This document shows, piece after piece, positions 2,945 through 63,975 of a stretch of DNA of 64,000 bases. The stretch spans positions 2,693 to 66,692 of the forward strand of contig CAYQJH010000002.1 in assembly GCA_964417755.1 (NCBI GenBank), read 5' to 3'. The notes under the pieces are model-generated. The model saw only the letters and a list, made by a program, of their open reading frames with translations. It did not search any database and was not told the DNA's origin. The first letter of the stretch is position 1; each line of letters begins with the position of its first letter. The translations under genes were made by a program, and so were the position numbers. Origin of the DNA: an uncultured Planctomycetaceae bacterium (lineage in GTDB: Bacteria; Planctomycetota; Phycisphaerae; SM23-33).

Positions 2945-3290
2945 ACAGGCTAGAGGCTACAGACTTCAGGCTACAGGAGCGGCAACGATAACGGCAGGCT
3001 CCGGGCTTCGGGCTTCAGGCGCGGCAACAACAACAACGGCAACAACGGCAACGGCAATGACGGCCGAACAGCAAAACAACAAAACGGCAACGGCTGCAGG
3101 CGGGACGCCTGCACCACAAGAACGGCAACGGCAACAGCAACGCAACAGCAAGAAGGCCTGCGGAGCCATGGCGATAGCAGACAATGGCTGGCAATGATTT
3201 GTCAATAGCTTCTCTTTGCGTTCTCTGTGGCTCTGTGAGTCTGTGGCTCTGTGGCTCTGTAGTTCTGTGCTCAGCTGTTCTGAGACTCAG
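2945..3290. repeat. Complex repeat-rich divergent intergenic region: C-family element (GGCTACAGACTTCAGG...), (GGCAAC/AACGGC)n hexamer tracts, and 8-mer (GCTCTGTG)n tandem
   Basis: Direct reading. Hexamer tracts span about 3010-3178 and five or more 8-mer copies sit at 3216-3262. Related copies at 32547-32637 and 47120-47212. Confidence 0.7.
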
Positions 3291-7214: not shown

Positions 7215-7372
7215 GTTACGCGATTGTGAGGCACAGCCTCCCGGGCTGTGCAATGCCATGGCGGACCGACAAAAAACAGCATGCCCGAGGGCGGGCTTCG
7301 CCTGAAGATACTGACAATGCCAACAGCATGCAGGCGAGACGCCTGCACCACAAAACAGCGACCGCCGTTCGA

Positions 7373-10084: not shown

Positions 10085-10205
10085 GCGCCGTGGTTTGGAA
10101 GCCTGGTGCCGTGGTTTGCGAAGCCGGAGGCGAAGCAACCACGTCTTCGGGATTGTGCAGGCCAGCGTGGTTGCTCCCGCTGCGCGTCCGCAAACCACGG
10201 CACAA
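10085..10205. repeat. Dispersed repeat, CCGTGGTTTGCG...CAAACCACGGC subfamily, with an internal tandem duplication
   Basis: Near-identical copy at 12215-12332 and a partial copy at about 50120-50200. Confidence 0.75.
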
Positions 10206-10327
10206 GCTATTCGCAACACTGGCAAGCAGCAGTTGCTATGCCGAAATAGGCTCCCTGATATTGTGGTTGCAGGCGCGGCCGCTATACTTCTTCAGTTGTT
10301 GACGCGCATCAAGAGAAAGGAAGACAC

Positions 10328-12214: not shown

Positions 12215-12332
12215 CCGTCGTGGTTGGCGAAGTTGGCGCCGTGGTTTGCGAAGCCGGAGGCTAAGCAACCACGTCTTTGGCATATGCAGGTCACCGTGGT
12301 TGCTTCCGCTGTGCGTCCGCAAACCACGGCAC
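12215..12332. repeat. Dispersed repeat (copy of the 10085-10205 element)
   Basis: GCCGTGGTTTGCGAAGCCGGAGGCtAAGCAACCACG...CCGCTGtGCGTCCGCAAACCACGGCAC. Confidence 0.75.
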
Positions 12333-12417
12333 CGGCAGGACGAAAATGTGGACACGCGCACGGCAGGAGAGTTACTCTGGCAGCGAGTCGGCGAATCTGG
12401 TAGACTCTGGAAGCCCT

Positions 12418-15748: not shown

Positions 15749-15754
15749 AGAGGT

Positions 15755-15995: not shown

Positions 15996-16055
15996 TATGC
16001 CGTTTCCTTCGATATTCTGCGGTTCTATTGTTGGATATTCGATATTCTCTGTTCC
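15996..16055. repeat. D-family repeat (forward copy)
   Basis: Near-identical to the 15755-15800 copy. Confidence 0.75.
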
Positions 16056-21504: not shown

Positions 21505-22148
21505 CACGCGAGCACAAAAAAAAGACCACAAGGCCATCAAGGTTCCCGTCAGTTTTCCGGACCCTTTCGGATCCTTCGGTTTCCGGTGTCCCTGATGACC
21601 CTTGTGATCTTAATCTAGTCTAGGCAGGCACCGCCCAAATTTCTTCTGCAACTGGAATTTTCTGCACTTTTTCTTCCACTGCTGCCATTTGAGACCGTCT
21701 GAATAACCTGCCGCAGAGACGCACAGGCCGCTGAGAACGTCAAGATCATTGATCTCTTCTCTCTGGCATGTTGATGCCGCCAAGACGGAGGATGCCATCC
21801 TCGCGCCGTTCTGGCTGTCCCATTTGTCGCAGGCGGCTCTCCATGGCTGAGGGCCCGCTCGTTATTGTGCTTGCCGTTGGCCCCATGGGGTAAACGCACC
21901 CTGGGCGACCAGCCGATCTTTGCTTTGAAGTCCCCTGCGTAAGCAGCGGGCCCCGCGCCTTCCGGCGGGGGCTTCCACTTGGTTCAACCAGTAAAAAAAA
22001 AACCACAGAGGCCTTTAAGGTTGTCGTATAGAGCTAATTGCTCTTTTCGATTTCCTTAATTGCCTCTGTGGCTTCTGAATTAACTATAGGCCGGCCCACG
22101 TGCGTTTTCATCTTTTCCTGGTGATTCATGTATTTCTTTCCCGCACTG

Positions 22149-22183: not shown

Positions 22184-22469
22184 GCCGTGCTAAGCGGGGC
22201 GCTAGCGGTGCCCTGACGGCCGAAAGGCCTGACCCGCAATCCGCTACAGCGGGGCTGAACGGTCCGCCGAGGGCCGCTGTTTGCAGGTTCCCTCGTCATG
22301 CGGGCGGTGTTGAAGGTTGGGTCCTCTGCAACGTTACGCCGTGAACCTGGTCAGGTCCGGAAGGAAGCAGCCATAAGCGACTTGTAACGTGTGCCGGAGG
22401 GTCACCTGGCTGGAGCCGTCTTCATGGCGATCCCTGTGAGCACGCGATTCGAAGCGGATCTGCACGGCT
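22184..22469 (+). ncRNA. ffs: Signal recognition particle RNA, long (Alu-domain, Bacillus-type) form
   Basis: Universal helix-8 sequence CCTGGTCAGGTCCGGAAGGAAGCAGCCATAAG at about 22345-22378. A 5' GCCGTGCTAAGCGGGG...GGTGCCCTG...CAATCCGCTACAGC Alu-like region. The 3' CGATTCGAAGCGGATCTGCACGGC pairs with the 5' GCCGTGC. A U-rich tract follows. Confidence 0.75.
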
Positions 22470-22522
22470 TTTCTTCACTCACGCACCAGAGTCCGACTTA
22501 CCGCGAACCAAAGGGGCCAATC

Positions 22523-24019
22523 ATGAACAGGCCGTTTACTCGGATGTATCTTCTGTCCATAGTTCTGGTCTGCGTACAAGCAGCCGATGCTGCCTCGCCG
22601 GCGACCGCAGCCGCCCCCACGGGCAGTCAATCGGCACAGACCGTCTACCCGACGCTGGAGGAGGCCGCCATCGCCGCCTGGCAATTCAGTGATCCTGATT
22701 TGCCTGCCGAATATTATGTCCACGGTCCGACAGAGGGCATGTTTGATCGGCCTGCGACTCTGAAGTTGATGAAGTCCAACGCATACGAGATATACAAGAC
22801 GCACGCCGATCTCAACGGCGACGGGGTTGACGAGGTGCTGATGGCCAATGGCCACTTCGTGAACAAGACTGGCAGAGAGTCGAGCTTCGATGGCGCTCAG
22901 AATCGCACTTGGGCAGTCCTTCAGAACACCCGGGGAGGTTGGCTTATCGTCGGAGCTGGTTTCGGTTCTCCCTGTCCGCCGGAGGTGCTCAAGGAATTAA
23001 CCAACGGCTGGAAGAACATTCGGAGCGGGCACCACCTGAGCGCCAGCAGTGGTGCCACATATCTATATGAATTCAATGGAATTCGATACAAACTGGTCAA
23101 GGAAACCGAGTATGGCCATTTGCCTACACGTCCTACCACCGGCCCTGCAACGCAGACGAGTAGTTCCCCAGCGAGCGTGCGATGGTCAAATGCCACAAAT
23201 GGCCTGAGGGCTCGAATTGAGGCAGGGCCATATCTTGCAAAGAGGTTGGGCAACCGAGTCGACGTGTATTTCGAGAACGTTTCTGATGAACCTTTTAGCC
23301 TTGATTTCGGCGAACTACAGGCGCTGTCATGGGCGGTCTTCGATGCCACAGGAAAGGACGTCAAACCCATAGCTGTGCAAAAGGCCGAGGCAGTCCCTGA
23401 CTGGCATTCGATTGCGCCCGGCCAGCAACTCGGTATGGTCCTGGGCAAGTCGGTGCAAAACCGCGACGGTCGCCTGCAGATCGGCGTCCACGAATGGAAA
23501 CTCCAGCCGGGCCGATATTCGATCCATTGCATGTTGGAGCTGCGATCAGACGCAGCGTCGAGGCCGGCTGGGCAAACACCGTGGAGCGGCCGGGTGGAAC
23601 TGCCGCCTGCGGAGTTTGAGGTCGTGGGGGAAGTCAGCGACGAGAACTTGATTGAAGCTGGTGAGCAAGTCCGCGCCGCCCATCCTGCCGGCGGTCTGGC
23701 CATGTGGCAGGCCCTGGCGGAACTGGTGCGTCCCGGCATGACGGTGCGGCAGATGTTCTTGGTTCTGCCAGCAAAGAAGATGACGCTGGAGGAAATGGGA
23801 GGGGCAGGCATCCTTTGGATGGGCGGCATCTTCTCGCTCAACTATCGGGTTGACGCTCTATGGTGCGTTGAAGCTGTCGGCGTGGGAGAAACTTCGGCCG
23901 GTTTGACCAACCCGTCCACGCAATCCCAGGCCATTGGCTTCGAGAATATGATCTTGACCCGTAAACCAGCAATAAAACCGGCGAAGGCTTCCATCGTTCC
24001 CGCCACGCAACCTGGCTAA
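22523..24019 (+). CDS. Secreted hypothetical protein
   Basis: ATG at 22523 gives a signal peptide MNRPFTRMYLLSIVLVCVQAADA. The upstream part of the track ORF overlaps the SRP RNA and is not coding. Confidence 0.55.
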   Translation: MNRPFTRMYLLSIVLVCVQAADAASPATAAAPTGSQSAQTVYPTLEEAAIAAWQFSDPDLPAEYYVHGPTEGMFDRPATLKLMKSNAYEIYKTHADLNGDGVDEVLMANGHFVNKTGRESSFDGAQNRTWAVLQNTRGGWLIVGAGFGSPCPPEVLKELTNGWKNIRSGHHLSASSGATYLYEFNGIRYKLVKETEYGHLPTRPTTGPATQTSSSPASVRWSNATNGLRARIEAGPYLAKRLGNRVDVYFENVSDEPFSLDFGELQALSWAVFDATGKDVKPIAVQKAEAVPDWHSIAPGQQLGMVLGKSVQNRDGRLQIGVHEWKLQPGRYSIHCMLELRSDAASRPAGQTPWSGRVELPPAEFEVVGEVSDENLIEAGEQVRAAHPAGGLAMWQALAELVRPGMTVRQMFLVLPAKKMTLEEMGGAGILWMGGIFSLNYRVDALWCVEAVGVGETSAGLTNPSTQSQAIGFENMILTRKPAIKPAKASIVPATQPG

Positions 24020-27947: not shown

Positions 27948-29761
27948 ACCAGGCGGCGTGGAGGAAGGCTGTCTTGTCGCGGACTCAACAAGATGTCGTT
28001 GCACCCGCTGGCGGCGCGGCCGCTGCCGAGGTGGAATTCGCCGAACTCTGGCGGCCATCCGGCGACGCGCAATTGCCGCGCGGCCCGGAGCGCATCCTCC
28101 TCCAGAAGGGCTACATCACTCAGCAGCAACTGGACCAGGCAGTGGCCCGCCAGCGCGAGAACCCCCGGCTGAGCGTCTTGCAGGCGCTTGTGCAGGCTGA
28201 GGCAATCAATGAAGTACTCGCCCTTCAGGCGGTGGCGGCATTTTTCAAGCTGCCCTTCAAGCGCATCAAGACAGCCGACGTTGACGCCAAACAACTGGAC
28301 CTGCTCGGCATCGAATTCCTCAAGGCCAAGCAGATCCTGCCTATCTGCAAGAACGAGCATGGGCTGCTGGTGGGCATAAGCGACCCGGCTGACATATTCC
28401 TCATCGACGACCTCAAGCGCCGCGTGCGATGCCAGCTTCGCCTGGTGGTCGTGCCGCCGGCGGATATCCTACAGGTCATCGAGGAACTTTCCAGCACGCC
28501 GGTTCAGCAGGTCGACGAGATCATCAAGGACATCACCGAAGACGCCGTTGAAGTGGTGGACAAGAAGGCGGAGGAAGTCGCCGACCTGGAGAAGATCGCC
28601 GGCGAAAGCCCAGTTATCCGCTACGTGAATTATCTCATCGCCTTCGCCGTCAAGGAAGGCGCCAGCGATATTCACATCGAGCCGGGCGAGGAGCGACTGC
28701 GCATCCGCCTGCGAATCGACGGCGTGCTCTTCGAGCAGCAGGCGCCGCCGCTGCAGATGCATGCAGCCATTATCTCGCGGCTGAAGATCATGGCCAATCT
28801 CGACATATCAGAGCGTCGTCTGCCCCAGGATGGGCGCATCCGCGCTGCAGTGCACGGGCGCAACGTCGATCTTCGCGTCAGTACGCTGCCGATTACGCAC
28901 GGCGAGAAATGCGTTATTCGTATTCTTGACAACCGCTCGATCCTCGTAGGCCTGGAAAACCTGGGCATGTGGAGCGACTGCCTTGCAGCCTTCCGCGAGC
29001 AGATCGTCCAGCCGCACGGCATCGTGCTGGTCACCGGACCGACCGGCAGCGGCAAGACGACGACGCTGTACTCGGCATTGCAGGTTATGGATGGCGACAA
29101 GCTCAACATCTCCACCGTGGAAGACCCGGTGGAATATGAACTGGGCTTCACCAACCAGGTCAACGTGCATGAGAGCATAGGCATGACCTTCGCAGCTGCC
29201 CTGCGCAGCCTGCTGCGCCAGGACCCTGATGTGGTCATGATCGGCGAGATTCGCGACGCCGAGACGGCGCGGATCGCCATCCAGGCCTCGCTGACCGGCC
29301 ACCTGGTGTTATCGACGCTGCACACGAATGATGCGCCCAGCAGCATCACGCGGCTGATCAATATCGGCGTGGAGCCTTATCTTATCAGTGCATCGCTGAA
29401 CGCCGTGGTTGCGCAGAGACTGGTGCGGAAGATATGTGAGAACTGCAAGGCGCCGATGACGAATCGCCGCGAGACCATCGCCGCCTACCTGCGGAAGTTC
29501 AATGCCGAGGGTATCAAGACGTTCCAAGGGGCCGGCTGCGACAAATGCCGCCAGACCGGCTACAAGGGCCGCCTGGGCATCTACGAACTGCTGCTGCTAA
29601 ACGACGATCTGCGCGACGTTGTGACCAGCAACCCGACATTGACGGAGATGCGCCGCAAGGCCTATGAAGCCGGCATGCGGTCCTTGCGAGAAGACGGCCT
29701 GCTGAAGGTTTCCGAAGGCCTGACGACGGTCGATGAGATCATGCGAGTGACGGAGACATAG
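27944..29761 (+). CDS. pilB: Type IV pilus assembly ATPase PilB (GspE family)
   Basis: Walker A GPTGSGKTTT, GspE N-terminal domain, tetracysteine motif CxxC...CxxC. TTG start overlaps the pilP-like stop. Confidence 0.85.
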   Translation: MNQAAWRKAVLSRTQQDVVAPAGGAAAAEVEFAELWRPSGDAQLPRGPERILLQKGYITQQQLDQAVARQRENPRLSVLQALVQAEAINEVLALQAVAAFFKLPFKRIKTADVDAKQLDLLGIEFLKAKQILPICKNEHGLLVGISDPADIFLIDDLKRRVRCQLRLVVVPPADILQVIEELSSTPVQQVDEIIKDITEDAVEVVDKKAEEVADLEKIAGESPVIRYVNYLIAFAVKEGASDIHIEPGEERLRIRLRIDGVLFEQQAPPLQMHAAIISRLKIMANLDISERRLPQDGRIRAAVHGRNVDLRVSTLPITHGEKCVIRILDNRSILVGLENLGMWSDCLAAFREQIVQPHGIVLVTGPTGSGKTTTLYSALQVMDGDKLNISTVEDPVEYELGFTNQVNVHESIGMTFAAALRSLLRQDPDVVMIGEIRDAETARIAIQASLTGHLVLSTLHTNDAPSSITRLINIGVEPYLISASLNAVVAQRLVRKICENCKAPMTNRRETIAAYLRKFNAEGIKTFQGAGCDKCRQTGYKGRLGIYELLLLNDDLRDVVTSNPTLTEMRRKAYEAGMRSLREDGLLKVSEGLTTVDEIMRVTET

Positions 29762-29782
29762 GAAGGCCCCAGGCTCTTTTGT

Positions 29783-29895
29783 GTGTCGCGGGCGTCTCGC
29801 CCGCGTGTACCGAGGGCATCCTGCCCTCGCTGCCTCCGACAATCCGCAGGCAAGACGCCTGCGGCACACGCGGGCAAGATGCCTGCGACACATGA
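29783..29895. repeat. A-family composite hairpin repeat (TGTCGCGGGCGTCTCGCCCGCG / GTACCGAGGGCATCCTGCCCTCG / CGGGCAAGATGCCCGCGACAC modules)
   Basis: Lies between pilB and pilT inside the pilus operon. More than 12 related copies across the window. Confidence 0.8.
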
Positions 29896-29961
29896 TTGCG
29901 CCGCAGGTTCGGGACCGGATGTTAGCGATATGCTTTCGCCGAACGAGACAAGCAAAGGAAT

Positions 29962-31116
29962 ATGACAATGTCAAACGCGATAATCGATCTGCCTGCCAAC
30001 GAACTGGGCCAGGAGCCTGAACTGCGGACGCCGCCGGTCAGTGATTCCTACCTCATGGACCTGCTGACCAAGGCCCTCAAGTCCAACGCCAGCGACGTGC
30101 ACATCATGGCCGGCCTGCCGCCGCTGTTCCGCACGCATACCGTGCTTGAGCCGGCGCCAGGCTATGGCCTGCTGTCGGCTGAGCAGGTCGAGCAGTTCGT
30201 CAAGGACATGGTCGGCCCCAAACGCTTCGCCCTGCTGCTGGAGAAGCGGGACATCGATTTCTCGACGAAGGTGCCGACGTTCGGGCCATCCCTTGGCCGA
30301 TTCCGCGTCAACGCGCACTTCCAGCGCGACACCATCGCGATAGCCTTCCGAGCCATCAGCGACAAGGTTCCGGAACTGTCCAGCCTGAGCCTGCCGCCGA
30401 TTGTCGAGCGAATGGTTGACCTGCCGCGCGGGCTGATCCTGGTGACCGGTCCGACCGGCTCGGGCAAGAGCACGACGCTGGCGTCGATGATCGACGCGAT
30501 GAACAAGCGATACAACTGCCATGTGATAACGATCGAAGACCCCATCGAGTACATGCTGCACAGCAACAAGTGCATCATTGAGCAGCGCGAGCTTGGCAGC
30601 GACGTGCCAAGCTTCGCCAGCGGCCTGCGGCATGCGCTGCGGCAGGACCCGGACATCATCCTGGTGGGCGAAATGCGCGACCTGGAGACGACCTCGGCTG
30701 CCATCACCGCCGCTGAGACAGGCCACCTCGTGCTCTCGACGCTGCACACGCAGAACGCCTCGCAGACCATCGAGCGTATCATCGACATCTATCCGGCTGA
30801 GCAGCAGAATCAGATCCGTGCAATGCTGTCCAACACGTTGCAGGCGGTCGTCAGCCAAGTGCTCTTCAAGCGCGTGGACGTGCCGGGCATGGTCCCCGCC
30901 TGCGAGGTGATGGTCTGCACGCCGGCGGTGCGCAACTGCATTCGCGAGAACCGCATTCACGAGATTCCCAACATCATCGAGACCAATCGCGCCAGCGGCA
31001 TGTGCACGCTGGATGAATCGATCAAGGCGCTGTACTTCAACGGCCGCATCAGCCGGCAGCAGGCGATTGCCGAGGCCGCCCGGCCTGATGCGCTCAGCAA
31101 GGCGCTGTGCACGTAG
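29962..31116 (+). CDS. pilT: Twitching-motility ATPase PilT
   Basis: Walker A GPTGSGKSTT. PilT-type length (384 aa). Confidence 0.85.
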   Translation: MTMSNAIIDLPANELGQEPELRTPPVSDSYLMDLLTKALKSNASDVHIMAGLPPLFRTHTVLEPAPGYGLLSAEQVEQFVKDMVGPKRFALLLEKRDIDFSTKVPTFGPSLGRFRVNAHFQRDTIAIAFRAISDKVPELSSLSLPPIVERMVDLPRGLILVTGPTGSGKSTTLASMIDAMNKRYNCHVITIEDPIEYMLHSNKCIIEQRELGSDVPSFASGLRHALRQDPDIILVGEMRDLETTSAAITAAETGHLVLSTLHTQNASQTIERIIDIYPAEQQNQIRAMLSNTLQAVVSQVLFKRVDVPGMVPACEVMVCTPAVRNCIRENRIHEIPNIIETNRASGMCTLDESIKALYFNGRISRQQAIAEAARPDALSKALCT

Positions 31117-31314
31117 TTGCTGAAAGCCCCCACCGGAAGGTGGGGGACCCCCGCCTTCCGGCGAGGGCTTTCTGGGTGGCATGGCGGGCGATTTTCCCCG
31201 CCATGCTAGGCGAGTGTGCGACATGGCGGCAGCCGTCTCCCGCTACGCTCGCCGTGCCAAGAACGACGGCCGCCATGCCACCCGAACATGGGTGCAATTG
31301 CAGGATGCAAGACT

Positions 31315-32544
31315 ATGACGACATTAAGTTACAAGTATGAAGTTCGCGATTCATCCGGGCATGTCAACACCGGCGTGATCGAGGCAAGCTCCGCCGCCGA
31401 GGCCAGCCAGCGACTAAAGAGCCAGGGCGGCTATCTGCTGAATATCGCGCCGGTCGCCTCGCCAGCCAGGAACGTGCTGGAGAAACTTCGAAGCGTCCAG
31501 GTGCAGTTGGGCCCCGGCCTGAAGGATATCCAGAGCTTCACCAATCAACTGGCCGTGATGATCAAGGCTGGCATCAGCATCCGCAATGCCGTCAGCGGCA
31601 TCGCCGAGCAGGTGGAGAATCCCAAGTTCCGCGGGATCATCGAGAAGATTCGCTCGGATGTCGAGTCCGGCCAGCCGTTCTCCGACGCCTTGGCCCGCCA
31701 CCCGAAGGTCTTCAGCCCGCTGTACATCAACATGGTTCGGGCGTCGGAACTGTCCGGCAATTTCGGCACGATGCTCGAGCGAATTTCGGCCTACCTGGCC
31801 CAGCAGGTCGAGACGCGCAGCATGGTCCGCGGCGCGATGATCTATCCCGGCATCATCGCCACGATGGCTATATCGACGACCATCTTTCTGCTGACCTTCG
31901 TCCTGCCGAAATTCCAGGCCCTCTTTGCCGGCAAGGAAGACCTCCTGCCGCTGCCTACGAAGGTATTGGTCGGCACCAGCGCGTTCATCCGCGGGTACTG
32001 GCCGGCCATCCTGGGAGTGCTGACGATCCTGGTCATGGGCTTCTTCTACGCGATCCAGACGCCCGTCGGGCGGCGCTACTGGGATATCGTCAAGCTCAAG
32101 ATGCCGCTGTTCAAGAAGATGTTCCGCGCTCTGTATATCACGCGCGGCCTGCACACGATGGGCGAACTCGTGAACGCGGGCGTACCCATGCTCGAGACGC
32201 TCAACATCACGGCTGAGGTCAGCGGCAACACGCTGTATCGATCGATGTGGCAGGACGTGCATAACGGCGTGCAGCAGGGCAGCAAGATCGCCGACCCGCT
32301 AGGCCGGCAGAGAATGCTGCCGCGCAATGTCGTACAGATGATCTCCGCGGGCGAAGAATCCGGCAAACTCGGCGAGGTCATGCGCGACGTGGCTGAATTC
32401 TACGCCCGCGAGCTGCGCAGCACGATCAAGACGGTTACAGCCATGATCGAGCCGATCATGATCGTGGCGATGGGCGGCATCGTTGGCTTTATCGCGATGA
32501 GCATCATCCTGCCGATCTTCAAGATGTCGAGCCTGGTGAAATAG
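31315..32544 (+). CDS. pilC: Type IV pilus platform protein PilC (GspF family)
   Basis: Two GspF repeats with 3+3 TM helices. ATG at 31315. Confidence 0.8.
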   Translation: MTTLSYKYEVRDSSGHVNTGVIEASSAAEASQRLKSQGGYLLNIAPVASPARNVLEKLRSVQVQLGPGLKDIQSFTNQLAVMIKAGISIRNAVSGIAEQVENPKFRGIIEKIRSDVESGQPFSDALARHPKVFSPLYINMVRASELSGNFGTMLERISAYLAQQVETRSMVRGAMIYPGIIATMAISTTIFLLTFVLPKFQALFAGKEDLLPLPTKVLVGTSAFIRGYWPAILGVLTILVMGFFYAIQTPVGRRYWDIVKLKMPLFKKMFRALYITRGLHTMGELVNAGVPMLETLNITAEVSGNTLYRSMWQDVHNGVQQGSKIADPLGRQRMLPRNVVQMISAGEESGKLGEVMRDVAEFYARELRSTIKTVTAMIEPIMIVAMGGIVGFIAMSIILPIFKMSSLVK

Positions 32545-32546
32545 CA

Positions 32547-32637
32547 GCAGGCTACAGGCTATAGGCTACAGACTTCAGGGACGGCAACGACAACGACAAC
32601 GGCAACAGCAGGCTCCCGGCTCCAGGAGCGGCAATGA
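32547..32637. repeat. C-family repeat with (GGCAAC)n tract
   Basis: GCAGGCTACAGGCTATAGGCTACAGACTTCAGGGACGGCAACGACAACGACAACGGCAAC. Homolog of the 2945-3180 element. Confidence 0.7.
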
Positions 32638-32777
32638 GAATGGCCAATCAGGAACATTCATGTTCTGACTCTTCAGGTCGTTCTTCGTGTCTTCGTGTCG
32701 TTGTGGTGAAAGTCGTTCAATCCGCAATCGCCGCAGAAGAATCTTATATTTCATGCAGTGGAACAAAGAGGTAGTTG

Positions 32778-33329
32778 ATGATGCGTTTTAGAAGTCTCAG
32801 GCCACGCTGCTCGTGCAAAGGCAGGAAAGCTGCTGCCAAGGGCTTTTCCCTGGTCGAGGTCGCGGTGGCCACTGCCATTGTTGGAGTCGGAATTGCCGCC
32901 TTGATGACGAGCATCAGCTCGGGCACCATCGTCAATTCATCCGGGCAGAAACTTACGCAGGCCAACTTCCTCGCGCAGGAAATCCGCGAGTGGACGCTGC
33001 GCTTGCCATTTAAGGACCCCGACGTCGGCGATGCGAGTAATCCGCCCGGACCCGATGGAACAAACCCGCAGACGTTTGTCGATGACTTCGATGATCTATA
33101 TGACATCAACGGCCTGACCTTCAACCCGCCACGCGATGGCACGGGGACGGCCATCTCCAACCTATCGGGCTGGTCGCAGACCATCAAACTCTCCTGGCGC
33201 GATGGCAGCAATCTAAGATCCACCGTCTCGCCGGGCTCGAGCGACTTCATCTACGTAGAGGTCATCGTGTCCTTGCAGAATCAGCCGGTCCTGACCACCG
33301 GCTGGCTGGTCTCCAGGAGGACAACATGA
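32778..33329 (+). CDS. Prepilin-type N-terminal cleavage/methylation domain protein (pseudopilin)
   Basis: KGFSLVEVAVATAIVGV class-III signal peptide (G|FSLVE). Confidence 0.7.
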   Translation: MMRFRSLRPRCSCKGRKAAAKGFSLVEVAVATAIVGVGIAALMTSISSGTIVNSSGQKLTQANFLAQEIREWTLRLPFKDPDVGDASNPPGPDGTNPQTFVDDFDDLYDINGLTFNPPRDGTGTAISNLSGWSQTIKLSWRDGSNLRSTVSPGSSDFIYVEVIVSLQNQPVLTTGWLVSRRTT

Positions 33330-33862
33330 TGACTTCAGGAAGGCGTCAGCCTCGCCGACGTGCGGGTCTTAGCCTGGTGGAAGTGCTCCTGAGCCTGGCC
33401 ATCACCGGCATGCTGCTGGGCGCGGTGGCCTTCGCGATGCAGGGCTCGTTCGACAGCTATCGCGAGAATGACGAGATATCGGCTGTCACAGCCACCGCCC
33501 GATCGATCCTGAGCAAGATGGCCCACGAGATTCGCGCCAGCGATGAGACAAGTTGCACCGGCACGAGCGTGTCGATCTTGCCGGTGGCTGACGGCAGCGG
33601 CCTGACGAGGATCGACTACACCTATAGCAACGGCAATCTCAATTACGTCAAGACGGTCGGCGGCACAGCCACCACCTATCCGCTGATCGTCAGCACGGAG
33701 AAGGTAAAGCTGACTTCGTTCACTCCCAGCGCAACTGCCGGCCTTGACGTTGCCAACAACAACTGCAACAAGGTCATCAGGCTGAGCCTCACTTTTACGG
33801 TAGGGGATCAAACCTTCAACGTTACCACCAGCGCCGCGCCAAGACGAAACCAGTTGTGGTAG
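33326..33862 (+). CDS. Prepilin-type N-terminal cleavage/methylation domain protein (pseudopilin)
   Basis: AGLSLVEVLLSLAITGMLLG prepilin N-terminus. 4-nt overlap with the upstream pseudopilin gene. Confidence 0.7.
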   Translation: MMTSGRRQPRRRAGLSLVEVLLSLAITGMLLGAVAFAMQGSFDSYRENDEISAVTATARSILSKMAHEIRASDETSCTGTSVSILPVADGSGLTRIDYTYSNGNLNYVKTVGGTATTYPLIVSTEKVKLTSFTPSATAGLDVANNNCNKVIRLSLTFTVGDQTFNVTTSAAPRRNQLW

Positions 33863-34034
33863 GCAGTACTTTGGAGTGCGGCGGCATAGACGCCGCTTTT
33901 GCCTCAAGTGCCGCTGGGCTTAACCTTCTGCCGTCCCACGTCAGTCAAAGCGGTGCCGCCGCCCTTCGGGCTCTGTCACCGCACTCCAAGGCCCATGATT
34001 GCTTCATCCAAGCCCAGGCGGTAGAATTTCCGCC

Positions 34035-35510
34035 ATGCATCAGCTTCTGCAAAAACTGAATGCGTTCCAGCCGGTACGCGTTGCCTTGGTGGGCGACTTC
34101 ATCCTCGACCGCTATGTCTATGGCGACGTCGAGCGGATCAACCAGGAGGCGCCCGTGCCGGTTCTGCAGATCGTCCGCAGCGCCAGCAGTGTTGGTGGGG
34201 CGGGCAACGTGGCGGCGGCTGTGCCGGCCCTTGACTCGAAGGTCTCCTGCCTGGGCGTCATCGGCTATGACGCCGGCGGAGAGGAACTTAGGCAATTGCT
34301 TGTTGCCGCCGGCGCTGATACGTCGTCGCTGCTGGCCCTGAGAGATCGGCCCACGTCGATCAAGACGCGGTTCGTCGGCCTGGCGCAGCATCGCCATCCG
34401 CAGCAGATGCTCCGCGTGGATCACGAGAATTCGCACGTGCTGGATGCCGCGACGCAGACGCAGCTGCGGCTGGCCTTCGGAAACCTGCTGGCCGGCAGCG
34501 ATATCGTCGTTTTGGAAGACTACAACAAGGGCGTCCTGAGCGACGCCAACACGCCGCACCTGATCGCCGACGCGACGGCCGCCGGCAAGAAGGTCATGGT
34601 CGATCCCGCCTTGGTGAGTGACTACTCGCGATATCGCGGCTGCACGGTTATCAAGCCCAACCGCTACGAGGCTGCCCTGGCCAGCGGAATCAAGATCACG
34701 GATGATGCCTCGCTGGAGGCCGCCGCCCGCAGGATTATCAATATCACAGCCTGCCAGGCCGTCGTCATCTCGCTCGACAAGGAAGGCATGTACCTCTGCA
34801 TCGCCGATGGCAAGGCTGCCCGCATTCCGCATCGCCGGCCTCGCAATGTTTACGATGTAACCGGCGCGGGCGATGAGACGCTTGCGGTGCTGGCGGTGGC
34901 GCTGGCGCAAGGCTGCGATTACCAGCAGGCGGTGGAGTTGTCCAACGTGGCCGGCGGGCTGGAGGTCGAGCGATTCGGCTTTGTGCCTGTTACACGCGCG
35001 GAGATGGCGGCGGAGATAGAAATAATGGTGGGCCTGCGAAGCGCCAAGGTGGTGGATCGCTTCACGCTGGCGCAGGAGCTGCGCCGCAGGCGCGGGCAGG
35101 GGCAGGCGATTGTCTTCACCAACGGCTGTTTCGATCTCTTGCACATGGGGCACGTTCGATATCTCAAGCAGGCACGCGAAATGGGCGACTGCCTCGTGGT
35201 TGCGATCAACTCCGACGCCAGTGTCAGCCGGCTGAAGGGTCCTTCGCGCCCGGTGATATCGCAGCAGGAGCGGGCGGAGATGCTCGGCTCGCTGGAATGC
35301 GTGGATTATGTAACCGTCTTCGACGAGGACACGCCGATTCCACTGCTGGAGATGTTCCGCCCGGACGTGCTGGCCAAGGGCGGCACCACGCCGGTTGTTG
35401 TCGGCAGGGAAATGGTGGAAGCTTACGGCGGCAAGGTGATGACGCTGGACAAGGTTGATGGCCTGAGCACCACGCAGATCATCGAGCGGATAGCTGGCGG
35501 CGGGCAATGA
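34035..35510 (+). CDS. hldE: Bifunctional D-beta-D-heptose 7-phosphate kinase / heptose 1-phosphate adenylyltransferase
   Basis: N-terminal PfkB-type kinase domain. C-terminal cytidylyltransferase motif [13 protein letters not shown]. Confidence 0.85.
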
Positions 35511-35561
35511 TGAACGACAGAATCCGAATGCCGAATCAATGACGAAATCAGAATGACGAAT

Positions 35562-36140
35562 ATGGCAACCAAGGCTGTGTTTGTCGACCGCGATCACACG
35601 TTGATCGACGACCCGGGCTATCTCGATAACCCGGACCTGGTGAAACTGCTTCCGGGCGTCGGCGGCGCACTGAAGGCCTTGTCGACAGCTGGGTACAAGA
35701 TCGTAATGGTTACAAACCAGTCCGGCATCGCCAGGGGGCTTCTCACCGAGCAGACGCTGGCGAAGATTCACGAGGAGCTTGGGCGGCAACTGGCTGAGCA
35801 TGGCGCCAGCCTGGACGCCATATATTATTGTCCGTTCCACCCGGAAGGCTCGATCCCGCGATACGCGATGGAGTCGGATCTCCGCAAGCCCAAACCTGGA
35901 ATGCTGTTGCAGGCAGCCAAGGATATGGCCATTGATCTGCCCGCAAGCTGGATGGTTGGCGACGGCGCCCGCGACATCGAGGCGGGCCAGCGGGCCGGCT
36001 GCAGGACTATTCGCCTGCGCCATCCCCAGGCGGACGCGGACTTGCGATGCGAAGATGAGGATGTTCAGGCCGATTTTACCGTTAGGAATCTGGCTGAGGC
36101 GGCCAAGATCATCCTTCGCGAAGACGTGGGACTTCATTAA
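35562..36140 (+). CDS. gmhB: D,D-heptose 1,7-bisphosphate phosphatase (HAD family)
   Basis: FVDRDHTL (DxDxT HAD motif I) and GmhB-like length. Confidence 0.8.
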   Translation: MATKAVFVDRDHTLIDDPGYLDNPDLVKLLPGVGGALKALSTAGYKIVMVTNQSGIARGLLTEQTLAKIHEELGRQLAEHGASLDAIYYCPFHPEGSIPRYAMESDLRKPKPGMLLQAAKDMAIDLPASWMVGDGARDIEAGQRAGCRTIRLRHPQADADLRCEDEDVQADFTVRNLAEAAKIILREDVGLH

Positions 36141-36199
36141 ATTTGCGGTTTATTTGAAATAGGTCTTGCTTTCATGACCGTTGCGGGCATAATCGTATC

Positions 36200-36367
36200 C
36201 GAATCCACCACTTGCCTATTTGCCGATCAAGCTTGTGCGTGTCTCCCGCACTTGCTTGGCCGTCAAGGTCGCCTCGGCGAGGGGGATCGCAGGTATTATT
36301 CTTCATCCTACGTCTGAAGCGGCAAACGTGGTGGCGCGGCGGGCCAAACCCGCCGCGAGTTTTTTAT
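36200..36367 (+). ncRNA. Candidate small RNA with its own promoter and intrinsic terminator
   Basis: TTGCTT (36166-36171), 16/17-nt spacer, CATAAT (36188-36193). A closing stem between 36206-36217 and 36321-36334. No ORF. Terminator at 36335-36367. Confidence 0.4.
36335..36367 (+). terminator. Rho-independent terminator
   Basis: CGCGGCGGG-CCAAA-CCCGCCGCG followed by AGTTTTTTAT. Confidence 0.7.
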
Positions 36368-36476
36368 GAGCCCGGGGCTGAGGAACCACCTGCCGGAGAG
36401 ACACATGCCGCACAGCCAAAGCGAGATCCTTTTCGTATAATGCCAAGGCGTTGCTACTACCTCCAAGGAGCCTGCC

Positions 36477-37658
36477 ATGAGAACGATCATGTTCGCATTC
36501 GTCCTGTGCGTGTCGCTGATTTACCAAGGAACACCTTGCTATTCGCAAAGCGCCACGACGGCTGCCTCCACCGGCGCGGCTGCCGCGGCGGCGATTGACG
36601 CTGCCCATCGCGATGCCGCGCGGAAGATGATCGACGGCGGCATTGCTTATCTGCTGTCCAAGCGCGATGCCGACGGCGGCTGGAGCGTCGGGCCAAACAA
36701 CGCATTCAAGCCCGCAGCCACCGCCCTGGCCCTGAAGGCCTTGCTGGGCGAGCAGAAATACTCGGCCCAGAGCCCGGAGGTCAAGCAGGCGCTGGGCGTC
36801 CTGCTGGGCTTCCGTCAGAAGGACGGCGGCATATATGGCAAGGACGGCCAGTCGGCCTACACTACCGCGGTAGCCGTCATGGCCCTGAAGGCGGCCAACG
36901 ATCCGCAATATAATGATGTCATTCGCGAGGCGGTGACCTACCTCAAAGGCCTGCAGGTTCTGCCCGGGCAGGAGTCGCCCGATGCCAAGCCGGTGGCCGT
37001 CGATGACCCGCGAGTTGGCGGGGTTGGCTATGGCAAGCCGCCCGCCTATCAGCCTAACCTCAGCGTGCTGGGGTTTGTAATGGAAGGCTGGGAGTCTGCC
37101 GGAGTGGCTGCGGATGACCCAGCCGTTCAGAAGGCAGCCGAGTTTCTGACCCGCCTGCAGAATCGCAGTGAGTCCAATCCTCAGGCGGTGGCAGCCAAGG
37201 GCAGCAATGACGGCGGATTCTACTATGCATTAGATGAATCCAAGGCCGGCAGTGAAGACGGCGGCCTGCGTAGTTACGGCAGCATGACATACGTTGGCTT
37301 CAAGAGCATGCTGTACGCCGGGCTGAGCAAGGACGACCCGCGCGTGCAGGCGGCCTACAGTTGGATCCGCCGGTACTGGGGCCTGGACAGCAACCCCAAC
37401 ATGCCCGACAAGCAGTCGCAGCAGGGGCTGTTCTATTATTACCAGGTCCTTGCCAAGGCGCTGCGGGCCTATGGCCAGCCGATCATCAAGGACGCAAAGA
37501 ACCAGGAGCACAACTGGCGGCAGGAACTTATCGATGCCCTGGCCAAGCGCGTGCAGCCTGACGGCTCGTGGAAGAACGACGCCGACCGATGGGAGGAAGG
37601 CAGCCCCATCCTGGTTACAGTCTACTGCGTGACGGCGTTGCAGGAGGCGATGAAGTAA
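36477..37658 (+). CDS. Secreted prenyltransferase/squalene-oxidase-repeat protein
   Basis: Signal peptide and recurring DGGW / QxxDGGxxxxG repeats of the terpenoid-cyclase alpha-alpha toroid fold. Confidence 0.65.
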   Translation: MRTIMFAFVLCVSLIYQGTPCYSQSATTAASTGAAAAAAIDAAHRDAARKMIDGGIAYLLSKRDADGGWSVGPNNAFKPAATALALKALLGEQKYSAQSPEVKQALGVLLGFRQKDGGIYGKDGQSAYTTAVAVMALKAANDPQYNDVIREAVTYLKGLQVLPGQESPDAKPVAVDDPRVGGVGYGKPPAYQPNLSVLGFVMEGWESAGVAADDPAVQKAAEFLTRLQNRSESNPQAVAAKGSNDGGFYYALDESKAGSEDGGLRSYGSMTYVGFKSMLYAGLSKDDPRVQAAYSWIRRYWGLDSNPNMPDKQSQQGLFYYYQVLAKALRAYGQPIIKDAKNQEHNWRQELIDALAKRVQPDGSWKNDADRWEEGSPILVTVYCVTALQEAMK

Positions 37659-37678
37659 AACCTGTAGCCGTTGCCATT

Positions 37679-37748
37679 TGTGGTGCGGACGTCTCGCCTG
37701 CACATGCTGGGCATTGCCGGGATCTGCGGCGGGACGCCTGCACCACAA
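37679..37748. repeat. A-family repeat arranged as an inverted pair
   Basis: GTGGTGCGGACGTCTCGCCTGCA ... GCGGCGGGACGCCTGCACCAC. Confidence 0.75.
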
Positions 37749-37761
37749 TTTCACATCGGCC

Positions 37762-38493
37762 TCAGGCCAGGCGGCAGCCGGCAGCCTCGAAGGCCTCCTT
37801 CGCCAGGCGTACATGCTCATCAGTAGCGCCGTCTTTGACCATCGCCGACATGAACCGCCGCAGGCTCTTTGCCTGTTTGACTTGCCGATTGAACCTGGGG
37901 CGATGCAGGCGCTCAAGGTCGATCAACGCCACGCCCGCACCCTTGCCGTTCTGCCCAAAGACGTGTCTTGGCAGCAGGTCAGGCCAGCACCAGCCGGCCT
38001 GAAACACCTTCACCATCGCGCCGGCCAGCTTCCGCAGCACATCCTTTATTAACGGCTGTTGAGCATCGGCAAGAAGCTCATTCAGAGGCGTTCCCTCTAC
38101 CGGCAGGGCCACCATTACGCCCTGCGTGGGCAGATTCAGAAAATGTCGCTGGCCGAAGGCAATGACCTCCGCAACGCCAATGCCGAAGCCGGCCACAACC
38201 TGCATGGCTGCATGTTCCTTGTGGATCATCGAACATGGCCGCCGGCCGGCAAGCATGTCACGAAGCATCTCGGTCCGCTCGGTGGCCAGGGCCTTCTTGA
38301 CGAAGACCATCTGGCCGCACGGCAGGACCGTGCTGCGCGTTTCACTTCTGCCGGCGTGCCAACTGAGGCATTGGCCGCCATCGAATCGCATCAGGTCTTC
38401 GAACGAGGCCAGGCCCGAAGCATTCAGACGCTGGCCCCAGCCCTCGGCTATCTCCAGGTGCAGGTTACTTTCAGTTTTCAAATCGCTCACCAC
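37762..38493 (-). CDS. Lipopolysaccharide kinase (Kdo/WaaP/InaA-like) family protein, divergent
   Basis: Protein-kinase-like fold remnants (ALIDLERLH, DLLPRHVF). Small size and motif spacing resemble Kdo/WaaP kinases. The assignment is tentative. Confidence 0.45.
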   Translation of the reverse strand: MVSDLKTESNLHLEIAEGWGQRLNASGLASFEDLMRFDGGQCLSWHAGRSETRSTVLPCGQMVFVKKALATERTEMLRDMLAGRRPCSMIHKEHAAMQVVAGFGIGVAEVIAFGQRHFLNLPTQGVMVALPVEGTPLNELLADAQQPLIKDVLRKLAGAMVKVFQAGWCWPDLLPRHVFGQNGKGAGVALIDLERLHRPRFNRQVKQAKSLRRFMSAMVKDGATDEHVRLAKEAFEAAGCRLA

Positions 38494-40138: not shown

Positions 40139-40752
40139 GTCGTAGCTCCACCTTTGTTGAGGGTCCCAGAGGCACTCACCTTCCGAACTATAATACCATC
40201 CCGCGCCTCAAGCACAATCATCGTCCACCCATACTCGCCCGGAAGGACACAGCCGGAGAATGATGGCATACCCCCGGCGTGATTCCTTCTGCTTCTGTCC
40301 GTGAAGCATGGCTCTCGACCTGAGCTGCATCTGCTTGCATGCAAAAACATAATCTTTGTGGCGTCAAGGGCTTGTGGTTTAGGCACCTGTTCAGTTCTGT
40401 TCAGTTCTGTACGATTCCATTCGATTTTGCCCCGGTTTTTGCGCATCTGAGCCGTCTTTGTTGTCATTCTTATTGCTCCGAGCGAACCATGAATATCCAC
40501 GTCTGCGCCGTGGCGACTGCATGGCCAGCGAACTCTCCGCGCACCCCATTAGCGCATCGCGCCCTCTCTTGTGCGCGCAAAGATGGTCAAGAAACGCGCA
40601 GGCTGGCCATAAGTCCTTGGCTGGAGCAAAGAAGAATATTATCGCAAGAGCTATTTCATGTTCCTAAATGGGATCGATATTTGCGCAGCAAGTGGGTCAA
40701 AGGCGTGCTAAGAATGCCTGGAACTGCATCAGCACAAGTTGGCTGCTTTTCG

Positions 40753-40910
40753 TGTCGCGGGCGTCTCGCCCGCGTGTACCGAGGGCATCCTGCCCTCGCG
40801 TTTCTCAACGAACCGCAGGCCAGACGCCTGCGGCGCGTGGGCAAGCTCGTGCTACGTAGCGAGCCACTTCGCGGAGTAGCAATGCCCGCGAAATGTAGCA
40901 GCCCGCGGGA
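40753..40910. repeat. A-family composite repeat, long copy including the GCTACGTAGCGAGC hairpin module
   Basis: Nearly identical over ~70 nt to the 29783 copy. Confidence 0.8.
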
Positions 40911-40957
40911 AGTCTCCCACGGGCTGCGGATATCTCGACCAGCTATGCAAGCATCTA

Positions 40958-42547: not shown

Positions 42548-42687
42548 GTTCTTCTCCTTTAGTCGATGAGGAACCGTAGCTTAAATGGTTGTTGCCATTT
42601 CTACGGCCCGTATTTTGAAAAGTTTGCGCAAGTCATTCAAGACCCTTAATGATAGGCGGTTGAAGGTGGACGCTAGAGCAGTGCCGC

Positions 42688-42790
42688 AGTTTTGTGCAGC
42701 GGGCGTCTCGCCTGCACATCCTTGGCATGTCAAAATCTGCAGGCACGTGGCGTGGCTTACGGAGCGAAGCGGAGTAACTACGCTTGACCG
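42688..42790. repeat. A-family repeat
   Basis: TGTGCAGCGGGCGTCTCGCCTGCACATC...GGAGCGAAGCGGAGTAACTACGC. Confidence 0.7.
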
Positions 42791-42919
42791 GCAGCATGGT
42801 CGCTCCATGCCTGCGGGACTTCACAGGCCAGGGCAGCCATCGGTCCGGTCTGGTGCAATTACGGGCAAGTATCTACTTATGCGTATATGTTGAGCGTGAG
42901 TGGGGGCGAACCCGCGTCT

Positions 42920-43090
42920 TCATCGCTGGCTGGCGCCTTTATCGATGGCACGAATTTCCTTCTCGATCAGGCGGCAGTTTTCCGAAGGGCGGCTGACGCC
43001 GGCAAAGACGCCGGTGCACTTGCTGATGTACGCGAACGTCGCAATCATCGACAATGCAATGATTAAGGCAACAAATCTTGGTGCAGTCAT
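42920..43090 (-). CDS. Candidate small membrane-anchored protein (56 aa)
   Basis: Strong SD AGGAGAatcc then ATG. N-terminal TM helix FVALIIALSMIATFAYI. Below the track's ORF length cutoff. Confidence 0.35.
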   Translation of the reverse strand: MTAPRFVALIIALSMIATFAYISKCTGVFAGVSRPSENCRLIEKEIRAIDKGASQR

Positions 43091-43381
43091 GGATTCTCCT
43101 GTTAAAACCTCCGGCGGAAAGAAACATACGATTCAGCAAACCAGGATGCGAAATGACCAATAAAATCAGGCCTTTACAGCGGTGGGGGCCTGAATCGAAG
43201 ACGCCGCGGGGAGGCGGCTGTGGCGGCAGGTCTTGAATGTCACTGAATTTGTGGAAATTTCTCTGGCAAAACGCCGGGCGGGACAGTAACCTACTGCCCC
43301 TTGTGGTGGTCCGGAAGTGTTTTCCGGCCCTGCCTTTGTAGGCAACCACGTAAAGATCACAGTTTCATGGGAGAGATTCCG

Positions 43382-43924: not shown

Positions 43925-44008
43925 CTGTGTCGCGGGCGCGTGCGCCCGCGCGGGCAAGCTCGTGCTACGTAGCGAGCTACTTCGCTAAGTGGCAATGCCC
44001 GCGACACG
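43925..44008. repeat. A-family repeat
   Basis: TGTCGCGGGCGCGTGCGCCCGCGCGGGCAAGCTCGTGCTACGTAGCGAGCTACTTCGC...GCCCGCGACACG. Confidence 0.75.
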
Positions 44009-44032
44009 TTTTCATACAGGCTCTTACGGAAG

Positions 44033-44683: not shown

Positions 44684-44742
44684 GGCCGTTACTCCTAAAT
44701 AGAAATAGCTGGTTCGTTTTGGCTGGCCCGCCTTGGGCCGGC

Positions 44743-46743: not shown

Positions 46744-46778
46744 TGCAGTACCTTTACCGGCATGTTCCTTTGTTTCAC

Positions 46779-46832
46779 CTGTCGCGGGCGAGACGCCCGC
46801 GGTACGCGCGGGCGAGATGCCCGCGACACAGG
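46779..46832. repeat. A-family repeat in the thrS 5' leader
   Basis: TGTCGCGGGCGAGACGCCCGCGGTACGCGCGGGCGAGATGCCCGCGACAC. Confidence 0.75.
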
Positions 46833-50021: not shown

Positions 50022-50268
50022 GTGGCGCGGGCATCCCGCCCGCGAATATCGCGGACCTCTCGTGCGCAGGTCGTTCCAGCAGGCAGTTTCGTGCTGGTAG
50101 CGAATGCCGCGGTTTGCGAAACCCGAAGGGATGAAGCCACGCTGCGGCCAAGCGTGGTTACTTCGCTTCGCTCCGTAAACCACGGCACCCCGCCTGCGGT
50201 TTGTTGTGAAGACGCGAGGGCAGGATGCCCTCGGTACGCGCGGGCAAGACGCCCGCGACACGCAAAGC
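50022..50268. repeat. A-family composite repeat (long copy, includes the CCGTGGTTTGCG module)
   Basis: GCGCGGGCATCCCGCCCGCG ... GTAAACCACGGCAC ... GAGGGCAGGATGCCCTCGGTACGCGCGGGCAAGACGCCCGCGACACG. Confidence 0.75.
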
Positions 50269-53293: not shown

Positions 53294-54889
<1,596 letters not shown>

Positions 54890-58932: not shown

Positions 58933-59092
58933 ACTGTGGTGCAGGCATTGTGGCGCAGGCATTGTGGTGCAGGCGTCTCGCCTGAATTGTGGTGCAGGCG
59001 TCTCGCCTGCATCTCGGATCACTTCGTGTTGGAAGGCCCCCACCAGAATGTGGGGAATCCCGCGTGCTTCCGCAGGGGGCTTCCTATCTGGT
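58933..59092. repeat. Tandem 14-mer (TGTGGTGCAGGCAT)n, A-family hairpins and a B-family copy
   Basis: TGTGGTGCAGGCATTGTGGCGCAGGCATTGTGGTGCAGGCGTCTCGCCTGAATTGTGGTGCAGGCGTCTCGCCTGCA, then GGGGAATCCCGCGTGCTTCCGCAGGGGGCTTCC. Confidence 0.75.
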
Positions 59093-61470: not shown

Positions 61471-61545
61471 CAGACGTCTGGCCTGCGTATACGAGGGCAG
61501 GATGCCCTCGGTACACGCGGGCGAGACGCCCGCGACACATAAAAC
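61471..61545. repeat. A-family repeat
   Basis: CGTATACGAGGGCAGGATGCCCTCGGTACACGCGGGCGAGACGCCCGCGACAC. Confidence 0.8.
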
Positions 61546-63928: not shown

Positions 63929-63975
63929 GGCACGGACATCCTGTCCGTGCGTCTCATGGGCGTCTCGCCCATGTT
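63929..63975. repeat. A-family hairpin pair
   Basis: GGCACGGACATCCTGTCCGTGC + GTCTCATGGGCGTCTCGCCCATG. Confidence 0.6.

Follow-up and report, generated by a model that had tools for sequence, protein, structure and literature searches.

Tagged hairpin repeats in a planctomycete genome stretch: probable RayT-associated palindromes of the GTAG superfamily, with copies in frame in a protein kinase gene

Repetitive extragenic palindromes (REPs) carrying a GTAG tag were defined as a superfamily by Di Nocera et al. (2013; BMC Genomics 14:522, PMC3733652), with Planctomycetes, Verrucomicrobia and cyanobacteria included, and the same study describes head–head and tail–tail dimers, long-loop variants, copies in frame within genes and REPtrons, in which the gene for a REP-associated tyrosine transposase (RayT) is itself flanked by REPs. 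Published variants of the tag are GYRG, GTRG and GTGG, the last being found in the GTAG-20 family of Opitutus terrae, and the intragenic copies of the O. terrae GTAG-19 family encode the peptides GTGVPPV, HGRDARAT, WHGRPAR, TGGTPVP, VARASRP and RAGRPCH (PMC3733652). Here we describe a family of short GC-rich hairpin repeats, family A, in a 64-kb stretch of DNA from an uncultured Planctomycetaceae bacterium (positions 2,693–66,692 of contig CAYQJH010000002.1; hereafter the window), taking as the focal copy a four-hairpin element between a pilB-like and a pilT-like gene.

The repeats occupy 16 sites in the window, with about 36 hairpin units in all. We consider it quite probable that these repeats are REPs of the GTAG-tagged superfamily, mostly in the form of REPINs (inverted pairs with the tags outside), and that they are non-autonomous elements, copied, excised and recombined on single-stranded DNA (ssDNA) by a RayT encoded elsewhere in the genome. 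This reading is supported because the units combine an unpaired 5′ GTRN tag with a short GC-rich palindrome, because they form inverted dimers, because RayT genes elsewhere have this tag and hairpin on their flanks, and because the family matches GTAG-19 of O. terrae. An initial annotation, made from the sequence alone, had proposed a repeat family at the same 16 sites, and this was borne out at every one of them by repeat finding and site inspection.

The tagged hairpin and RayT genes

The family-A unit is 23–27 nt long and consists of a 5′ tag (GTGG, GTGT or GTAC), a 7-bp GC stem, a 5-nt loop of consensus RTCYY and the return stem, the tag being unpaired and abutting the 5′ side of the stem; TTGTGTCGCGGGCGTCTCGCCCGCG is an example. 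The core GGCRTCYYGCC, with at most one mismatch, occurs 54 times in the window (about 30 of these matches being exact), compared with 22.6 ± 4.8 in dinucleotide shuffles, none of 100 of which reached 54. Perfect hairpins with a 6-bp stem and a 5-nt loop number 63, compared with 25 ± 5 in Markov shuffles, and the commonest loops among them are GTCTC/GAGAC and ATCCT/AGGAT. A strict scan of the window (stems of 6 bp or more, loop RTYNY) returned 26 hairpins, 25 of which have GTGG, GTGT or GTAC directly 5′ of a 7–9-bp stem and the loop RTCYY; the other, at 18728–18750 within a coding sequence, is without the family tag and was treated as a chance occurrence. The shuffles, together with the gene context, rule out a chance or coding origin of the repeats. 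Over 30 aligned units, 95.7% of the stem cells are paired and compensatory changes are present in six of the seven pairs, and sliding the partner column lowers the pairing to 26–51%. G-U cells are rare (4/210), so that either strand can form the stems equally well.

A search for repeats throughout the window recovered direct and inverted copies that are 65–97% identical, and each site was also inspected. The units occur singly, as head-to-tail doublets, which are the dominant arrangement, and as inverted pairs of single units or of doublets with the tags outside, the inverted doublet pairs giving four-hairpin REPINs. Inverted pairs of this kind lie at 29783–29891, 37679–37748 and 54044–54160, and a tandem array lies at 58933–59013, in agreement with the inverted pairs and tandem duplications of the initial annotation. 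The left half of the focal element reads GTGTC-GCGGGC-GTCTC-GCCCGC / GTGTAC-CGAGGGC-ATCCT-GCCCTCG and is followed by a spacer; the right half reads CCGCAGGC-AAGAC-GCCTGCGG-CACAC / GCGGGC-AAGAT-GCCTGC-GACAC. Of the modules into which the repeats had been divided, the first three are one unit class in two orientations, CGGGCAAGATGCCCG, which had been listed separately, being the reverse complement of the unit class of modules 1 and 2.

Six-frame translation of GTGGCACGGGCGTCCCGCCCGTG, a sequence that shares its tag and core with the window family, gives exactly the published GTAG-19 peptides. The repeats, which had been described as a family without a name, belong to the published GTAG-tagged REP superfamily and extend a GTAG-19-like family to another planctomycete lineage. 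A full-text literature search with the core sequences returned only unrelated primer and oligonucleotide matches.

When folded as ssDNA with its short flanks (29775–29900), the focal element has a predicted energy of −48.7 kcal/mol (z = −7.5), and as RNA one of −84.4 kcal/mol (z = −8.8); in the predicted fold the outer doublet arms pair together, giving one long hairpin of about 110 nt. The stability of the composite as RNA is one of the points that speak for an alternative in which the hairpins are primarily host cis-regulatory RNA (3′-end stabilisers, attenuators or operon-polarity elements), kept by selection site by site, rather than mobile DNA. Many copies are indeed placed shortly after a gene, in a convergent-gene spacer or within an operon (pilB–pilT, 37679, 57703 and 7329), and enterobacterial REPs are known to stabilise upstream mRNA (PMC3733652). 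We nevertheless find this alternative unlikely, since copies stand in both orientations relative to the flanking genes and also occupy divergent promoter regions (3093, 12215, 50022 and 58933), since the almost purely Watson–Crick stems point to a constraint at the level of the DNA, and since the unit flanks RayT genes, is present or absent between orthologues and occurs in frame in genes, as described below. Any regulatory role is best regarded as following secondarily from the presence of REPs; once transcribed, the hairpins would probably act as passive stabilisers of mRNA 3′ ends or within operons, for example between pilB and pilT. The more specific suggestion of an intrinsic (Rho-independent) terminator was rejected, because the hairpins are not followed by a T-tail, the T-run sitting 5′ of the tag and the A-run 3′ of the hairpin in the opposite of the terminator order, and because a terminator scan of positions 29000–48999 called none of the elements there. 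At the gathering score, the signal recognition particle (SRP) RNA was the sole Rfam match in the window and no family was returned for the repeats; the focal element gave generic long-hairpin (miRNA precursor) matches far below threshold.

The motif also occurs beyond the window. A scan of the genomes of 185,579 species with the pattern GTGKNGCRGGCRTCYYGCCYGC found it in at least 119 stretches of other genomes (these and further loci are cited below by number, L), from Planctomycetota, Verrucomicrobiota, Acidobacteriota, delta-proteobacteria, Armatimonadota and others, and many of the matches listed have an inverted partner ending in CCAC. Among the matches listed, 18 loci have a GC content below 50%, mostly from Nostocales and other cyanobacteria (Aphanizomenon, Dolichospermum, Nostoc, Sphaerospermopsis and Microcoleus), and a chance match at such loci is very unlikely. 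An identical GC-rich unit, CTTGTGGTGCGGGCATCTTGCCCGC, was seen in cyanobacterial genomes of about 38–40% GC (L010, L012, L026, L057, L088, L093, L107 and L072, the last a Dolichospermum metagenome-assembled genome, MAG); in L072 three copies are arrayed at 3379–3574 with a period of 87 bp. The complete four-hairpin composite is present in L024 (82% identity over 111 nt), L201 and L202, and the changes in its stems are compensatory.

A direct connection to a transposase gene is provided by L036, in which a 150-residue gene flanked by inverted copies of the family-A REP at 6082, 6194 and 6750 forms a REPtron. Its product matches PF01797 and scores 80.8 bits (cut-off 80) against NF047646, ‘REP-associated tyrosine transposase’, compared with 22.6 bits against the IS200 model, and the best solved structure for a profile of its relatives is PDB 4er8, the E. 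coli TnpA-REP. The 116 database relatives of this RayT, often annotated as such, come from Desulfomonile, Thermodesulfobacteriota, Vicinamibacterales and Armatimonadota, and the clade includes metagenomes of the Planctomycetes–Verrucomicrobia–Chlamydiae (PVC) group. In the reverse test, a perfect 7-bp hairpin with a GT[AG]G tag was sought within 400 nt of the gene in 80 metagenomic loci encoding relatives of the L036 RayT; it was found in 68 of the 80, and on both sides of the gene in 41. The density of tagged hairpins is 2.95 per kb near the RayT gene, compared with 0.10 per kb elsewhere in these loci (29-fold), and the exact core with the RTCYY loop occurs in about twenty of them, typically inverted around the gene. 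One signature of tag and loop (GTRG, stem, RTCYY) and its RayT clade thus span at least six phyla, the low-GC cyanobacteria included. Presence and absence can be seen between L203, which has an A-family REPIN, and its syntenic orthologue L204, which lacks it (the proteins being 77% identical).

A side observation concerns L090 (positions 97–2340; Verrucomicrobia MAG Bin_73_16, VFJO01000280.1), in which valS contains a whole REPIN–RayT–REPIN unit in frame, flanked by HRIPVWYKK and ...DVLDTWFSS, with the reading frame open throughout.

On the paradigm of E. coli TnpA-REP, the RayT would bind the folded single-stranded hairpin, read the tag, and cut and rejoin the DNA there; such rejoining would leave no target-site duplication and would give rise to dimers, arrays and variants that are nested or have long loops. 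Several points weigh against this account. No RayT gene was found in the 64-kb window by motif scan and profile search, and the RayT of the source organism is predicted to lie elsewhere in its genome. In contig L001 (98.9% identity over 4.5 kb) the REPs stand at the same two sites, and the comparison gives no sign of recent REP movement in this lineage; the two single-nucleotide polymorphisms (SNPs) in its loops keep the RTCYY/RRGAY consensus. The L036 RayT barely exceeds the cut-off of NF047646, and the window tags are GTGG, GTGT or GTAC rather than the canonical GTAG. Finally, 25 of the 30 units in the covariation set had been picked as hairpin-formers, a choice which inflates the pairing figure of 95.7% but not the compensatory pattern.

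Two further alternatives are weaker than the regulatory one. If the repeats were binding sites of a host DNA-binding or nucleoid protein (gyrase, a protein like integration host factor, IHF, or another), their conservation across phyla would follow from that; the tag, the stem-closing GGC/GCC and the loop RTCYY are indeed strikingly conserved over at least six phyla, and E. coli REPs and bacterial interspersed mosaic elements (BIMEs) bind gyrase, Pol I and IHF. This seems to us a distinctly improbable explanation, as there is no pointer to a host factor in the data, the cross-phylum conservation tracks the RayT clade flanked by this hairpin, and the stems vary freely with compensation while the tag and loop stay fixed, which fits a reader of structure plus tag such as TnpA-REP (PDB 4er8). 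Of the likeness to REP/BIME or to miniature inverted-repeat transposable elements (MITEs) that had been drawn earlier, the REP/RayT half stands, but we can give very little credence to MITEs in the sense of deletion derivatives of DDE-type insertion sequences, mobilised via terminal inverted repeats and making target-site duplications: the composites of 70–160 nt with inverted ends are superficially MITE-like, but the ‘ends’ are repeated 23-nt tagged hairpins that are also found alone and in head-to-tail arrays, terminal inverted repeats distinct from these are absent, inspection of the element flanks shows no consistent direct repeat, and the transposase gene associated with the hairpin elsewhere is of the Y1 HUH and not of the DDE class.

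In-frame copies in kinase loops

The repeats had been taken to be intergenic throughout, but one four-hairpin REPIN (54044–54160) is coding and lies in frame in a Ser/Thr protein kinase gene (Table 1). The insert reads GAGVPPA...RGQDVRAT, and the loop from DFGLA to GTPQYMAPE is 45 residues long in this kinase, compared with a family baseline of 16–19 residues. As this kinase shows, a REP that lands in a tolerant surface loop of a protein can be retained in frame. The same gene contains a second in-frame REP of a different family, in the β4–β5 loop; it is the one true tagged hairpin of the CTGGAAG-loop variant in the window (53766–53792), the remaining matches to that pattern not being hairpins.

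We aligned the window kinase with its best homologues (119 alignable sequences in total) and found that nearly all of the variation in length is at two sites, the β4–β5 loop, with inserts of at least eight residues in 71 of the 119, and the activation loop, with such inserts in 80. The inserted peptides fall into recurring classes, which are translations of different repeats. In the kinases of L201 and L202, the four-hairpin A-family REPIN of the window is present at the same spot, with stems that match the REPs of their own genomes, while those of L203, L204 and L205 have three other inverted hairpin-repeat pairs there, the ones in L203 and L205 being GTAG-tagged REPINs. Between the syntenic orthologues L203 and L204 the activation-loop REPINs differ, and these kinases also show a REPIN present in one and missing from the other. 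In a Geminisphaera kinase (L058), the same position is taken by a single unit. The two loops of this large family of PVC Ser/Thr kinases are repeatedly occupied by in-frame REPINs of several different families.

We suggest, tentatively, that the activation loop (just after DFGLAKLVG) and the β4–β5 loop of PVC kinases might be recurrent landing pads for in-frame REPINs, and that RayT-driven turnover might continuously rewrite this regulatory loop, the resident REP serving as the entry point for the next. On this view, the inserted copies keep perfect hairpins that match the REP population of the genome in which they lie. The pattern may be caused by permissive loops or by targeted replacement at resident REPs. 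A mimic of the GTGG tag in the KLVG codons (CTGGTGGGC) was considered as an explanation of the hot spot and rejected, because L205 has CTGATGGGA and L201 has CTTGTTTCC there, so that the mimic is not general. A search of the literature on REPs in kinase activation loops found nothing relevant besides Di Nocera et al. (2013). If the suggestion is true, REPINs would be a source of rapid diversification of signalling proteins, beyond their part as intergenic passengers, and should their turnover alter how the kinases are regulated, selfish hairpin DNA would here be shaping signalling proteins. The intergenic repeats themselves are ordinary, and the in-frame kinase copies are the more interesting lead.

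Sites in the window and other repeats

A gene map of the window was built from the periodicity of GC at third codon positions (GC3) and from Pfam, which upheld the gene names given earlier: T2SSE plus MshEN for the pilB-like gene, T2SSE for the pilT-like gene, ThrRS and PriA. On this map, intergenic DNA makes up 13.8% of the window and contains 15 of the 16 sites. Of the 33 spacers with a length of 50 nt or more, about 15 contain an element, nearly half rather than the ‘most’ of the initial annotation; a script counts 14, since 58933–59013 straddles a gene boundary. The individual sites are given in Table 1. Stems like those of the variant doublet at 63929–63975 (CACGGGC and CATGGGC) are present in L201.

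Table 1. Repeat sites in the window, with the kinase gene that contains two of the copies (window coordinates).
Position	Strand	Feature	Context and remarks
3093..3121	-	Single family-A unit, TTGTGG-TGCAGGC-GTCCC-GCCTGCA	Divergent intergenic spacer
7329..7351	-	Single family-A unit, TTTTGTGG-TGCAGGC-GTCTC-GCCTGCA	Convergent-gene spacer
10085..10206	.	Family-B inverted dimer and partial third copy	Arms GTGC + CGTGGTT + 19–21 nt loop + AACCACG
12215..12333	.	Family-B inverted dimer and partial third copy	84% identity to the element at 10085
29783..29891	.	Four-hairpin REPIN (focal element): doublet 29783–29831 (+) facing inverted doublet 29844–29891 (-)	Tags outside; spacer between pilB-like and pilT-like genes
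37679..37748	.	Inverted dimer of single units, GTGGTGCGGAC...GCCTGCACCAC	Convergent-gene spacer
40753..40910	.	Doublet (+), one inverted unit, and long-loop variant unit at 40834–40896	
42688..42790	.	Family-A unit, GTGCAGCGGGC-GTCTC-GCCTGCA, and family-B unit at 42747–42790	
43925..44009	.	Family-A-like unit with variant loop (GTGTCGCGGGC-GCGTGC-GCCCGCG), then inverted long-loop variant unit	
46779..46832	-	Doublet	thrS 5′ leader; shared with L001, which differs by SNPs at 46814 (in the loop, still RRGAY) and 46822 (in the stem)
50022..50268	.	Composite: family-A unit and degenerate unit (+), family-B inverted dimer 50100–50188, family-A doublet (-)	
53294..54889	+	Ser/Thr protein kinase gene with two in-frame REP insertions	Pkinase, E = 1.4e-49
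53766..53792	+	Second in-frame REP, different family, GTAG-CACAGGC-TTTCCA-GCCTGTG	Kinase β4–β5 loop
54044..54160	.	Four-hairpin REPIN, in frame; encodes CGAGVPPASGEAVSASQDQQHREQDARGTRGQDVRAT	Ser/Thr kinase activation loop
57703..57862	.	Unit and long-loop variant unit (+) facing doublet (-)	Convergent-gene spacer
58933..59013	+	Single units in a tandem array, two of them truncated and two full (ATTGTGGTGCAGGC...)	Upstream of priA
61471..61545	-	Doublet with degenerate partner	Downstream of priA
63929..63975	+	Variant doublet, GTGG-CACGGAC-ATCCT-GTCCGTG / CATGGGC-GTCTC-GCCCATG	

At 46763–46860 and 58989–59019, the longest open reading frames (ORFs) of thrS (start at 46860) and priA (start at 58989) extend into REP sequence; both genes probably begin downstream of the repeats, thrS at about 46763. 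The repeats explain both these extended starts and the spurious ORFs that ORF callers place across spacers. They also mark likely break points of assemblies, and they should be masked before searches for motifs or small RNAs.

The module CCGTGGTTTGCG...CAAACCACGG had been counted as part of the same family, but CCGTGGTTTGCG belongs to a separate family B, with the tag GTGC, the stem CGTGGTT/AACCACG and a structured loop of 19–21 nt. Family B forms inverted dimers at 10085–10206, 12215–12333 and 50100–50188 and has a single copy at 42747–42790; a further copy is at L094 6353–6388, in the planctomycete MAG AlinenLipids_bin-9348, which carries the same family-A units. The module GCTACGTAGC, which had been listed as a module of its own, is a long-loop variant of the main family-A hairpin, in which a structured insert of 36–40 nt replaces, or lies within, the 5-nt loop of an otherwise normal unit (..CTCGTGCTACGTAGCGAGC..ACTTCGC..). 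The three long-loop hairpins (40834–40896, 43947–44009 and 57735–57800) are 85–89% identical to one another and represent either a nested insertion or a long-loop variant; long structured loops have been reported for other REP families (PMC3733652).

Other repeats were noted in passing. A separate 55-nt repeat (GAAGCCCCCTGCGTAAGCAGGGGG..CCGCCTTCCGGCGGGGGCTTC) with two adjacent hairpins is present in three copies, 75–87% identical, at 12410–12464, 21927–21981 and 31123–31177. An AT-richer family (GAATATCCAACA..GAATATCGAAG) lies at 23–76, 15754–15780, 15822–15855, 15998–16040 and 63115–63228, and includes a perfect 34-nt inverted pair at 15822/16007, 151 nt apart. Simple repeat tracts lie at 2940–3140, 3223–3269, 32562–32644 and 47170–47214; they comprise GGCTACAGACTTCAGGCT and GGCAACGGCAAC motifs and, at the start of ORF 3184–4302, an 8-nt tandem CTCTGTGG array. 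The SRP RNA is of the large bacterial type (22185–22467, + strand; RF01854, 157 bits), and because the longest ORF call at 22391–24019 overlaps it, that gene probably starts further downstream.

Comparison with described systems

The palindromic elements of Rickettsia (RPEs; Ogata et al. 2000) resemble the window family in being palindromic and in lying in frame in genes, where they are kept as extra surface peptides. They are longer than the window units, have no known dedicated transposase and belong to the CGTC-tagged group (PMC3733652).

In the REP/BIME and TnpA-REP system of E. coli (Ton-Hoang 2012; Messing 2012, PDB 4er8), a tag of the GT(A/G)G type stands 5′ of an imperfect palindrome, as it does in the window family. 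Folded ssDNA hairpins are bound there by a Y1 HUH enzyme, which cuts them at the tag; its counterpart for the window is predicted. The window family has no evident alternation of Y and Z REPs, no fixed BIME linkers and no IHF site, and its stems are shorter and perfect, with a conserved pentanucleotide as the loop.

The REPIN–RayT systems of Pseudomonas and Enterobacteria (Bertels & Rainey 2011; Nunvar et al. 2010) share with the window family the pairing of inverted REPs over a short spacer into one long hairpin, the spread over intergenic space and the REP-flanked RayT gene, which for the window family is seen in other genomes. The sequence of the hairpin and its loop differ, the arms of the window REPINs are often doublets, and the RayT of the source genome is predicted.

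The closest described family is GTAG-19, which has the same unpaired 5′ tetranucleotide tag, 7-bp stem and 5-nt loop and the core GGC-GTCCC-GCC, the match resting on the peptides, and which likewise forms head–head dimers, clusters, long-loop variants and in-frame intragenic copies. Its host is Opitutus, whereas that of the window family is a planctomycete. The tags GTGT and GTAC of the window family are further variants beyond the published GTAG-type tags, and head-to-tail dimers, which are rare in most genomes (PMC3733652), are dominant in the window family.

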